Origin: an uncultured Actinomycetes bacterium
GTDB lineage: Bacteria; Actinomycetota; Thermoleophilia; Gaiellales; Gaiellaceae
Assembly (NCBI GenBank): GCA_963747125.1
Contig: CAVVEN010000007.1
Span: forward strand, 16,287-80,286
Direction of reading: 5' to 3'
DNA: 64,000 bases
Part shown: positions 3,660 through 6,613 of the stretch, piece by piece
How the letters are laid out: every line of letters begins with the position of its first letter
Position numbering within the stretch: position 1 is the stretch's first letter
Notes under the pieces: generated by a model
Told to the model about the DNA's origin: nothing
Seen by the model: the letters and a program-made list of their open reading frames with translations, nothing else
Database searches by the model: none
Position numbers and translations under genes: made by a program

Positions 3660-3950
3660 ATGAGCCTACGCGTCTTCGAGGTGTTCCGGCGCGAGCGCGC
3701 CGGCGCGCCGATGCAGCACGCCGGCTCGATCGTCGCGCCCGACGAGCGCTTCGCGGAGATCTACGCGCGCGAGCAGTACGGCCGCCGCGGCGAGTCGGAA
3801 GCGCTCTGGCTCGTCCCGCGCGAGGCGGTCGACGAGATCGAGGACTTCGTCGACGAGTTCGACCTCAAGTACCGGCGGGTCGACGGCTACTCGATCAAGG
3901 AACGGCTCAAGGAGGCGCGGGAGCGCGCCGGGACTGCCGGCGATGTCTGA
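3660..3950 (+). CDS. paaB: Phenylacetyl-CoA epoxidase subunit B
   Basis: FEVF..HAGSIVAPD..AREQYGRRGE..LWLVP. Confidence 0.88.
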   Translation: MSLRVFEVFRRERAGAPMQHAGSIVAPDERFAEIYAREQYGRRGESEALWLVPREAVDEIEDFVDEFDLKYRRVDGYSIKERLKEARERAGTAGDV

Positions 3951-4614
3951 GCGCGTCGACCTGCTGCTCGAGCTCGCCGACGACGAGCTGATCCTCGGCT
4001 GGCGGAACTCGGAGTGGACGGGGATCGCCCCGTTCCTCGAGGAGGACGTCGCGTTCTCCTCGATCGCCCAGAACGAGATCGGGCACGCGCGCGCGCTCTA
4101 CGAGCTCGCGGCGCGCGAGATCGGCACCGACGCCGACGCCCTGGCGTTCGACCGTCCCCTGGACGCGTATCGCTCGGCCGCGCTCGTCGAGCTGCGCCGG
4201 CTCGAGTGGGCGCGGACGATCGCCCGCCACTGGCTCTACGAGACGGCCGACGCGATCCGGCTCGAGGCCCTGAAGAGATCGGATGATCCCGAGCTCGCGG
4301 GGATCGCCGCCAAGATGGACCGCGAGGAGGTCTACCACCGGATCCACGCCGAGATGTGGATCGACCGCCTGCTCGGCTCGGACGAGGGGCGGCGGCGGCT
4401 CGACGAGGCGCTCGCGGAGCTCTGGCCGTACGCGCTCGGAGTCCTCGACGACGGGATGCGCCCCGAGCTCGAGCGCCGGGTGGGGACGAAGCTCGGCCGT
4501 GCCTTGCCGGAGGTAGATCCGATCGCGCGAGGGCGGCACGAGGCAGAGCTCGGCGACTTGCTCGAGGAGATGACCATGGTGCGTCGCTCCGCGCCGGCGG
4601 GGGCACGGTGGTGA
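3943..4614 (+). CDS. paaC: Phenylacetyl-CoA epoxidase subunit C
   Basis: LADDELILGWRNSEWTGIAPFLEEDVAFSSIAQNEIGHAR; ends GARW. Confidence 0.92.
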   Translation: MSERVDLLLELADDELILGWRNSEWTGIAPFLEEDVAFSSIAQNEIGHARALYELAAREIGTDADALAFDRPLDAYRSAALVELRRLEWARTIARHWLYETADAIRLEALKRSDDPELAGIAAKMDREEVYHRIHAEMWIDRLLGSDEGRRRLDEALAELWPYALGVLDDGMRPELERRVGTKLGRALPEVDPIARGRHEAELGDLLEEMTMVRRSAPAGARW

Positions 4615-4653: not shown

Positions 4654-5289
4654 GTGAGACCGGTGTCTGACTTCAGTCAGGCACCCCATCCTGCCGGCCG
4701 CCAGCCCGTAGGAGGCCGAGCGAGGCTCAAGCCACGCCCCGCACGCGGCGAAGGCACCGCGGGCCCTGCGGACGGCGGAGGCAAACCGGCAAGTAACACA
4801 GTGTCACTTGCGGCCGAGGCCGTCTGGGAGGCACTGGCCGCAATCCCCGACCCGGAGATCCCGGTGATCTCGATCGTCGACCTCGGCGTCGTCGCCGACG
4901 TCAGGGTCGACGGGGAGCGCGTCGAGGTGGACTTCACGCCCACGTTCATGGGCTGTCCGGCGCTCGAGGTGATGTGCGCGCAGATGGAGGGCGCGATCCG
5001 GGCGCTCGGCGCGGAGCCCGACGTGCGCGTCCTCCTCGACGACTCGTGGTCGACCGACCGGATCAGCCCCGAGGGGCGAGAGAAGCTCCGCGCCGCCGGA
5101 TTCGCGCCGCCCGCGCCTCGAAGTGCCGGGACGCCGACGCTCGTCCAGCTCGAGCGTGGCCCGTTCCGCTGCCCGTGGTGCGGCTCGACCGACACGCGCC
5201 TCGACAACGTCTTCGGCCCGACGCCGTGCCGCTCGCTCCGCTACTGCCAGGCCTGCCGCCAGCCGTTCGAGCAGTTCAAGACGATCTGA
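4654..5289 (+). CDS. paaD: Phenylacetyl-CoA epoxidase subunit D (PaaD/PaaJ); start uncertain, 5' part is repeat-derived
   Basis: DPEIPVISIVDLG, TPTFMGCPA, WSTDRI, CPWCGS, FGPTPCRSLRYCQACRQPFEQFK. Confidence 0.88.
   Translation: MRPVSDFSQAPHPAGRQPVGGRARLKPRPARGEGTAGPADGGGKPASNTVSLAAEAVWEALAAIPDPEIPVISIVDLGVVADVRVDGERVEVDFTPTFMGCPALEVMCAQMEGAIRALGAEPDVRVLLDDSWSTDRISPEGREKLRAAGFAPPAPRSAGTPTLVQLERGPFRCPWCGSTDTRLDNVFGPTPCRSLRYCQACRQPFEQFKTI
4789..4811 (+). repeat. 23-bp palindrome inside the paaD frame
   Basis: GCAAGTAACACAGTGTCACTTGC; 22/23 identical to the copy in argD read on its coding strand. Confidence 0.75.
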
Positions 5290-5439
5290 GAGTGGACGGC
5301 CACCCGATGGGCGGCGCTCGTCGTGACGCTGGCATACGCGGATACTGCTGTCGGCGGGCGCACGGGACGTTGCGGCGGGACGTGGACACCGGCGCGATAG
5401 CGGAGCGCCACCGCCCCCGGCTCGGGTAGCGTCCGGGCC

Positions 5440-5664
5440 GTGCGCATCGAGATCTTCTACTGCCCCGTCTGAAACGGCTACGACCGGCGGGCCGCGAGTC
5501 TCGCGGCCGTGTTGAGCGACGCGGGTCACGAGGCGTTCGCCGTCGAGGGCGACAAGAGCCAGTACGACGTCGTGGCCGACGGAGCCGTCGTCTTCTCGAA
5601 GCAGCGCGAGGGTCGCTTCCCGGAGGACGACGAGATCCTCGCGCTCGTCACCCACGGCGGCTGA
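5440..5664 (+). CDS. Rdx (SelW/SelT/SelH) family selenoprotein; UGA at 5470-5472 read as Sec
   Basis: MRIEIFYCPV-U-NGYDRRAASLAAVLSDAGHEAFAVEGDKSQYDVVADGAVVFSKQREGRFPEDDEILALVTHGG: CxxU plus the Rdx tail (FSK..GRFP). TAGCGT 7 nt upstream. Missed by the ORF track. Confidence 0.88.
5490..5508 (+). promoter_or_regulatory. Bacterial SECIS-like hairpin
   Basis: GGCCGCGA-GTC-TCGCGGCC, 8-bp stem starting 17 nt after the in-frame UGA, with G in the apical loop. Confidence 0.75.
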
Positions 5665-5686
5665 GCCCGGGATAGCCTCACGGGAC

Positions 5687-6613
5687 ATGGCGCTCCTGCG
5701 CGCACGCGAGCTCACCAAGACGTTCGGCTCGGTGAGGGCGCTCGACGCCGTCAGCTTCGAGATCGACGAGGGCATCACGGGCCTGCTCGGGTCGAACGGG
5801 GCCGGCAAGAGCACGTCGCTCAAGCTCTTCCTCGGCCTCCTCGAGCCGGACGCGGGGTCGGCGGAGGTTCTCGGCCAGGACCCGAGGATCTCGCCCGAGT
5901 ACCGGACCCGCGTCGGGTACGCCCCCGAGCACGACTGCCTCCCGCGCGACGTGTCGGCCGCGGAGTTTCTCGCCTACCTCGCCCGGATGAGCGGGTTGCC
6001 CGCGACCGCGGCGCGGCTGCGAGCGTCGGACGTACTGCGCCACGTCGGCCTCTTCGAGGAGCGGTACCGGCCGATGGGGACGTACTCGACCGGGATGAAG
6101 CAGCGCGTGAAGCTCGCGCAGGCGCTCGTCCACGACCCGTTGATCGCGCTCCTCGACGAGCCGACCGCCGGGCTCGACCCGCTCGGTCGCCGTGAGATGC
6201 TCGAGCTGATCCGCCGCGTCGGCGGCGAGTTCGGCATCAGCATCGTGATCTCGACGCACCTGATGGGCGACGTCGAGCGCGCCTGCGACTCGGTCGTCGT
6301 CCTCGACGCCGGGCGGCTGCTTCGCCACGGCCCGGTGTCGGGTTTCACGGAGGAGACCGAGACGCTGGAGGTCGAGCTGGTCGAGGGCGTCGACGCGGTC
6401 GCGGAAGGCCTCCGGCGACGAGGGCTGACGCCGACGGTCGACGGCCGCCGCCTGACGCTCGACGACGTGTCCGGGGAGGACTACGACGTCCTGCGCGACG
6501 TCGTCGTCGACGCCGGGGCGCTGCTCTACCGCCTTGCGCCCGCCCGCCACTCGCTGGCGGACGTGTTCGCAGGCGAGCCGTCCGCGCCGCGCGACGAGCG
6601 GTCGGCGCCGTGA
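5687..6613 (+). CDS. ABC transporter ATP-binding protein
   Basis: GSNGAGKS, YSTGMKQR, LLDEPT. Confidence 0.93.
   Translation: MALLRARELTKTFGSVRALDAVSFEIDEGITGLLGSNGAGKSTSLKLFLGLLEPDAGSAEVLGQDPRISPEYRTRVGYAPEHDCLPRDVSAAEFLAYLARMSGLPATAARLRASDVLRHVGLFEERYRPMGTYSTGMKQRVKLAQALVHDPLIALLDEPTAGLDPLGRREMLELIRRVGGEFGISIVISTHLMGDVERACDSVVVLDAGRLLRHGPVSGFTEETETLEVELVEGVDAVAEGLRRRGLTPTVDGRRLTLDDVSGEDYDVLRDVVVDAGALLYRLAPARHSLADVFAGEPSAPRDERSAP

Follow-up and report, generated by a model that had tools for sequence, protein, structure and literature searches.

A probable SelW-like selenoprotein gene, mis-called as a 51-residue ORF, in Gaiellaceae

The stretch of actinobacterial DNA analyzed here (64,000 nucleotides, hereinafter the window) contains a small gene that is truncated by standard gene calling and that, very probably, is a functional selenoprotein gene in which the UGA at codon 11 is read as selenocysteine (Sec). 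The UGA occupies the same codon of a redox motif in all the Gaiellaceae loci that were compared, and is followed by a conserved stem-loop resembling the bacterial SECIS elements. The initial annotation of the window, made from the sequence alone, had proposed a 74-codon frame broken by one TGA after Y-C-P-V, recoding of this UGA as Sec, a hairpin with a G-containing loop downstream of it and membership in the Rdx/SelW family, all of which are borne out by the results described below. A redox link to the phenylacetyl-CoA epoxidase encoded next to the gene, which that annotation itself called speculative, is not. The coordinates of the relevant features are given in Table 1.

Table 1. Features of the Rdx/SelW-like gene and its surroundings in the window
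Feature	Coordinates	Strand	Evidence and remarks
paaA	2651-3595	+	Pfam PaaA_PaaC
paaB	3660-3950	+	Pfam PaaB
paaC	3943-4614	+	Pfam PaaA_PaaC
paaD	4654-5289	+	Pfam FeS_assembly_P and Zn_ribbon_PaaD
-10-like hexamer TAGCGT (TAnnnT)	5427-5432	+	7 nt before the GTG; putative leaderless promoter
Predicted Rdx/SelW-like selenoprotein gene	5440-5664	+	GTG start, Sec codon 11, stop TGA 5662-5664; translation, HMMs, fold
Redox motif C-P-V-U	5461-5472	+	Cys8, TGC 5461-5463; Sec11, TGA 5470-5472
bSECIS-type hairpin GGCCGCGA-GUC-UCGCGGCC	5490-5508	+	Fold, covariation, synonymous constraint
Short 51-aa ORF of standard gene calling	5509-5664	+	ORF list; artefact of stopping at UGA
ABC transporter ATPase gene	5687-6613	+	Pfam ABC_tran; 22 nt downstream of the Rdx gene

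Gene structure and annotation

Translation of the window yields an Rdx/SelW-like frame of 74 codons with a single internal TGA. The N-terminus encoded between the GTG and this TGA is V-R-I-E-I-F-Y-C-P-V, and past the TGA the same frame continues, without a shift, to the terminal TGA, with SQYDVVADGAVVFSKQREGRFPEDDEIL contained in the tail of the protein. In the standard ORF list, this gene is represented only by its 51-residue tail, and the same product is the public protein record of the contig. The databases present a similar picture: the public entries for the family (15 read, among the best 120 of 319 matches) are mostly fragments of 48-52 amino acids, the rest being full-length calls in which W or G stands for the TGA. 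The W or G in these full-length calls, which come from short metagenome contigs, results from gene callers trying genetic codes 4 or 25 and is a systematic annotation artefact. Some fragments of the same clade, among the matches listed, carry the JGI label 'predicted Rdx family selenoprotein'. Thus, as was anticipated in the initial annotation, gene callers miss the Rdx/SelW gene, and we are confident that the 51-residue gene call is a mis-called part of a genuine SelW-like selenoprotein gene. The database entries in roughly a hundred Gaiellaceae species, both the 48-52 residue fragments and the products with W or G, need correcting.

Protein family and predicted fold

When read through the TGA, the protein matches the Pfam Rdx profile (PF10262) with 40.3 bits, compared with the cut-off of 22.6, across residues 2-71 of 74 and profile positions 1-73 of 74, and the NCBIfam profile CXXU_selWTH (TIGR02174) with 36 bits, compared with the cut-off of 34.2; both matches span the TGA. 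The score against the SelTWH_Campy equivalog (NF041051), 52 bits, is below the cut-off of 88, indicating a related protein but not a member of that group. Sequence comparison with proteins of solved structure ranks the bacterial SelW-related proteins 2fa8 and 2p0g, together with human MIEN1, highest. The CxxC motifs of these proteins align to C-P-V-[TGA], the second Cys of the motif in 2fa8 and 2p0g being placed at the TGA.

An AlphaFold model of the 74-residue protein, built from 20 aligned relatives, has a mean pLDDT of 94 and consists of a strand (residues 2-7), a helix (14-27), three further strands (31-36, 42-46 and 49-53) and a C-terminal helix (63-72), with the C8-P-V-U11 motif predicted to sit in the loop between the first strand and the first helix. 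The best PDB matches of the model are 2p0g, 2fa8 and 2ojl, all of them SelW-related, with TM scores of 0.84-0.88, and the wider set of structural matches (2p0g, 2fa8, 2ojl, 2obk, 3dex and 2oka) covers TM scores of 0.82-0.88 and rmsd of 1.4-2.3 Å over 74-77 columns; mouse SelW and thioredoxins rank after these bacterial SelW-related proteins. By profile, motif and predicted fold, the predicted protein is a member of the Rdx (SelW/SelT/SelH) family.

Conservation of the predicted selenocysteine codon

In a draw of the genomes of 24 species from the same genus, 15 contained an orthologue, at 53-86% identity. The in-frame TGA in the context C-P-[VT]-U is present in all 15 of these orthologues, with both the TGC codon of Cys8 and the TGA invariant. 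TGA also occupies this codon in each of 80 further Gaiellaceae loci from a species-representative collection, and neither TGC nor TGT was found there in any of the 80. A Cys form of the family was not encountered among the database matches inspected (15 read, from the best 120 of 319). In public sequencing runs, parts of the window were found only in contigs from soil DNA, where uncovered bins carry no meaning, and the independent soil-metagenome contigs that cover positions 5470-5472 show no other letter, with some of these runs possibly being the source sample of the metagenome-assembled genome (MAG) itself. The initial annotation had held that exchange of TGA for TGC among orthologues would be informative, and that reads with TGC or TGT at this codon would speak against recoding; neither was observed.

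Coding conservation extends on both sides of the TGA. Neither a nonsense mutation nor an error of assembly could be common to about 95 species in which the protein is conserved both before and after the TGA. The universal presence of TGA at the CxxU position, combined with the conserved hairpin downstream, supports recoding of the UGA as Sec.

The predicted SECIS hairpin

The hairpin downstream of the UGA has arms GGCCGCGA (5490-5497) and UCGCGGCC (5501-5508), which form 8 base pairs closed by the loop GUC. The stem begins 17 nt past the UGA, as the initial annotation had it, and the loop 25 nt past, so that the apical G and U are found at 26-27 nt. The UGA-to-loop spacing employed in bSECISearch-type searches is 16-37 nt. 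Because the folding energy of the hairpin is unremarkable in DNA of 71% GC (z = -0.77 relative to shuffled sequences, a weak test at this composition), the case for it must be made by comparison of sequences. In an alignment of 78 distinct sequences, paired cells make up 99.2% of the helix, compared with 25-51% when the partner arm is slid by 1-3 columns. Compensatory changes occur at two pairs, G-C to C-G in one and C-G through U-G to U-A in the other; the remaining variation in the helix is mostly G-U wobble and most positions are invariant, so that the covariation amounts to few changes.

The synonymous sites are constrained as well. Among the 15 same-genus orthologues, the synonymous codon identity is 0.95 for the hairpin codons 17-24, as opposed to 0.67 for codons 25-70, and for the four-fold degenerate Ala codons, the synonymous identity is 0.85-1.00 within the stem, compared with 0.24-0.45 elsewhere. 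The G and U of the loop come from a conserved Ser codon, AGT, which accounts for 1.2% of the Ser codons in the long ORFs of the genome. A scan of positions 5300-5800 against Rfam produced chance-level matches only, with no SECIS family among them. The conserved stem-loop is a well-supported, predicted bacterial SECIS element. Elevated synonymous identity is also seen in codons 1-10 (5440-5469), at 0.91 compared with the same 0.67 for codons 25-70 in the 15 orthologues; this is not explained by the hairpin, and leaderless initiation or an additional RNA element may be the cause.

Putative leaderless start and proposed decoding

There is no Shine-Dalgarno sequence ahead of the GTG at 5440, and a scan of positions 5200-5800 for sigma-70 promoters and intrinsic terminators detected nothing. 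A leaderless pattern consisting of a -10 box only emerged from the comparison of loci: in 73 of the 80 Gaiellaceae loci, the ATG or GTG is preceded by a TAnnnT hexamer whose end is 6-8 nt away, and the hexamer is found in the same-genus orthologues as well. In leaderless actinobacterial transcripts, the placement of the -10 box directs the initiation of transcription to the start codon itself, and the position of the TAnnnT box suggests that the mRNA of the Rdx/SelW gene is of this kind. The TAGCGT hexamer that the initial annotation noted 7 nt before the GTG is indeed there, and the promoter of its own that was attributed to the gene is plausible, given the recurrence of the box. Public datasets yielded no usable RNA run; in one metatranscriptome, 4% of the words sampled were present. 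The gene for the ABC transporter ATPase (ATG at 5687) likewise lacks a Shine-Dalgarno sequence and is preceded, 8 nt upstream, by a TAGCCT box (5673-5678) located just past the stop of the Rdx gene, so this gene may also be leaderless.

In the scheme that we propose, the mRNA would start at or next to the GTG, as judged from the position of the TAGCGT box. At codon 11, the hairpin would recruit SelB-GTP with Sec-tRNA(Sec), so that Sec would be inserted and translation would not terminate. The finished protein would be a small thiol/selenol oxidoreductase that presumably cycles between the reduced Cys-SH/Sec-SeH form and the Cys8-Sec11 selenenylsulfide.

Selenocysteine machinery and other candidate selenoproteins

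The window comes from a soil Gaiella/Gaiellaceae MAG (Thermoleophilia; 3.21 Mb in 34 contigs, 79% complete). In this 79% complete assembly, there was no match for selA, nothing above the cut-off for selB or selD, and no tRNA-Sec, with none of the 46 tRNAs identified by ARAGORN carrying the anticodon UCA. A 40-bit selD-like match and the selB-like matches in this genome are generic relatives, all below the cut-offs, and the best tRNA-Sec-like matches are tRNA-Ser. The tRNAs for Cys, Phe, Tyr and Ile are likewise missing from the assembly. Across the 24 same-genus genomes, selA is above the cut-off in 23 and selD in all 24, and in all five of the high-quality same-genus genomes selB and tRNA-Sec (62-68 bits) are present as well, in the order selA-selB-tRNA-Sec.

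The closest relative, G021, encodes selA, selB, selD and tRNA-Sec and shows the same combination of two paralogous Rdx families as the genome analyzed here, with Sec in the family of the present gene (family A) and Cys in the other (family B). The sel genes of G021 reside on a 116-kb contig, C6, the first 5.3 kb of which are collinear with contig C3 of our assembly at 82-85% identity, which is the level of the control locus. This match runs off C3 at base 5 (C3:5-3607 versus G021 C6:6-5278), and nothing in our assembly corresponds to the remaining 111 kb of C6, where selD is located at 71 kb and selA-selB-tRNA-Sec at 111-115 kb. Because the collinearity runs off the end of C3, the sel region appears to lie beyond the contig end rather than to have been cleanly deleted. 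The match consists of two BLAST pieces with an overlap of about 1.6 kb on C3, a sign of a local repeat or rearrangement at the contig end. The initial annotation had named the absence of selABCD from the genome as grounds for giving up the Sec assignment. Formally, such an absence is what we observe in the 79% complete assembly, but the machinery is present in the same-genus genomes and the synteny is interrupted at a contig end; incompleteness of the assembly, an indirect explanation that draws also on the other missing tRNAs, best accounts for the absence.

Outside the window, the genome contains an FdhA-like gene (C5:311868-313919; TIGR01591, 644 bits), an otherwise open frame with an in-frame TGA at C5:312285 within SCNRT-U-HAPSV, the classic Sec site of FdhA. 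This TGA is followed by the hairpin CGUCGUC-GGUCU-GGCGACG with the loop GGUCU, and the FdhA-like gene is a second selenoprotein gene of the same genome. The paralogous Rdx family B (C-V-P-x), which is represented at C32:28662-28877, also outside the window, has a Cys codon, TGC, and no TGA, both here and in G021, whereas in at least ten same-genus genomes the family carries TGA (C-V-P-U) and a hairpin with the apex GGUCU. Thus, family B is a case of Sec/Cys exchange within one genus.

Several interpretations of the TGA other than active Sec decoding have to be considered in the light of these observations. The species could have lost the Sec machinery, in which case the TGA would now act as a stop and the gene would be a relic, dead or decaying; the failure to detect selA, selB, selD and tRNA-Sec in the assembly and the Cys in the paralogous gene at C32:28662-28877 are compatible with such a loss. 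However, the gene, the TGA, the hairpin and the -10 box are all intact and show the same pattern as in the relatives that possess the machinery, including the closest one, with its identical Sec/Cys combination; the FdhA gene also retains a TGA within an open frame, the synteny with the sel contig of G021 stops at the end of a contig and not inside one, and the assembly is only 79% complete, so we consider a relic highly improbable. Even less credible, to the point of being almost negligible, is that the UGA is read as Trp or Gly (codes 4 or 25) or that a TGC was misassembled as TGA. The public gene calls with W or G on short contigs agree with the former reading, but the same gene ends in TGA, as do many of its orthologues, the sole tRNA-Trp in the assembly has the anticodon CCA and no tRNA there reads UGA, and the genus possesses a full Sec system; an error is contradicted by the recurrence of TGA in about 95 species, each assembled independently, and by the independent soil contigs. 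A pseudogene, an alternative genetic code and an assembly error are accordingly rejected on the evidence of conservation, tRNAs and Sec machinery, and decoding of the UGA as Sec is retained.

Genomic neighborhood and the proposed phenylacetate connection

The paaABCD genes lie directly upstream of the Rdx/SelW gene (Pfam matches) and no paaE was found in the window (TIGR02160), in line with the initial annotation on both counts. Within the paaD ORF, only residues 64-211 are conserved in relatives, so that the true start is probably about 60 codons downstream of 4654. The order seen here is maintained loosely across the Gaiellaceae, and the synteny of the gene with paaD, which the initial annotation had proposed to examine in relatives, proved to be weak: in about 58 of the 80 loci, paaABCD are found on the same strand no more than 6 kb upstream, but a paaD that directly adjoins the gene occurs in only 16, and paa genes are lacking within 6 kb in about 22 loci with full flanks. 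The gaps between paaD and the Rdx gene in the relatives are filled by variable genes of unrelated kinds, namely an ABC transporter pair, DUF899 and an AidB-like acyl-CoA dehydrogenase, and paaE is not found in these gaps. On the other side, the ABC transporter ATPase gene adjoins the Rdx gene in 12 of the 80 Gaiellaceae loci and in 7 of the 15 same-genus loci.

Given this neighborhood, the selenoprotein could be conceived of as a dedicated redox component of the PaaABCD phenylacetyl-CoA epoxidase, replacing or assisting the missing PaaE. Beyond the frequent proximity of paaABCD, this notion draws on the failure to find a canonical PaaE: none (TIGR02160) was found in the window or in our assembly, and the PaaE/PaaK profile TIGR02160 had no match above 46 bits in six genomes (our assembly along with G001, G004, G012, G021 and G023, the latter five being 90-97% complete and containing paaABCD), a search of uncertain power given that the controls also scored below the cut-off. 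However, the low frequency of direct adjacency, the loci that lack paa genes altogether within 6 kb, the unrelated genes in the gaps and the conserved -10 box of the Rdx gene itself all speak against a dedicated partnership, and the counts overstate the linkage inasmuch as gene order is shared by descent. The chemistry is problematic as well: PaaE passes single electrons via FAD and a 2Fe-2S cluster, and a dithiol-type protein with a CxxU motif could not plausibly take the place of such a reductase. We therefore regard a dedicated Paa partner as very unlikely. A role of this clade in phenylacetate catabolism of a somewhat different kind, namely protecting or re-reducing the oxygenase or handling the reactive epoxide, is conceivable because the family is Sec-only in about 95 species, most of which have it downstream of paaABCD, and no canonical PaaE was found in the lineage. 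This remains a long shot, which, if true, would be the first defined function for bacterial SelW-like proteins. The functional link to the epoxidase is, on the whole, not supported, and the neighborhood looks like gene order retained by descent around a small gene that is transcribed on its own. The predicted oxidoreductase probably has a general redox or stress role rather than catalyzing or assisting a step of phenylacetate breakdown.

Comparison with known systems

The gene is a solid but ordinary addition to a known bacterial selenoprotein family, and it leaves the current understanding of the Sec system and of the Rdx family unchanged. What it contributes is an abundant soil actinobacterial lineage among the users of SelW-like selenoproteins, a clean and well-conserved example of a bacterial SECIS on an apparently leaderless mRNA, and pointers to further selenoprotein genes in the same genomes, FdhA and the second Rdx family. 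A literature search retrieved no paper on Gaiella selenoproteins.

The putative SECIS element shares with that of Escherichia coli fdhF the placement of a hairpin within the reading frame, immediately 3' of the UGA, and the exposure of G and U at the apex. The [A/G]GUCU apex, which is common to this gene, the paralogous Rdx family and the FdhA gene of the same genome, presumably resembles the fdhF apex. In contrast to fdhF, the stem here differs in sequence and is fully GC-rich, with no bulged U evident, and the binding of SelB is putative.

Mammalian SelW (2NPB) and MIEN1 (2LJK) belong to the same Rdx family and share the CxxU/CxxC motif and the thioredoxin-like fold; their known partners, glutathione and 14-3-3, are not known to have bacterial counterparts. 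Unlike the gene described here, with its hairpin in the coding region, the eukaryotic genes have the SECIS in the 3' UTR. Their proteins also match the model less well, with TM scores of 0.61-0.75. The solved Cys-containing SelW-related proteins, 2P0G (Vibrio cholerae), 2FA8 (Agrobacterium Atu0228), 2OJL, 2OBK, 2OKA and 3DEX (Streptomyces SAV_2001), have the same fold as the one predicted here, and their CxxC motif aligns with CPVU, but they carry Cys in place of Sec, are only 23-30% identical to the Gaiellaceae protein and are about 5-15 residues longer.

The closest analogs are the bacterial SelW-like selenoproteins, one of the 25 bacterial selenoprotein families of Zhang et al. 2006 (PMC1794560), where the example from Actinobacteria is Symbiobacterium. 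Cys homologues of such proteins are scarce or lacking among organisms that use Sec (PMC1794560), and the proteins are frequent in marine metagenomes, as is apparent from the Sargasso Sea and GOS selenoproteomes (PMC1088965, PMC2398784). The predicted Gaiellaceae protein shares with them the small size, the N-terminal CxxU located right after the first strand, the thioredoxin-like fold, the UGA followed by a hairpin and the scarcity or lack of Cys forms among Sec users, and differs in forming a distinct clade within the Gaiellaceae (Thermoleophilia), with the signature CPVU-[NSGD]GYDRRAASLAA and an mRNA that is apparently leaderless.
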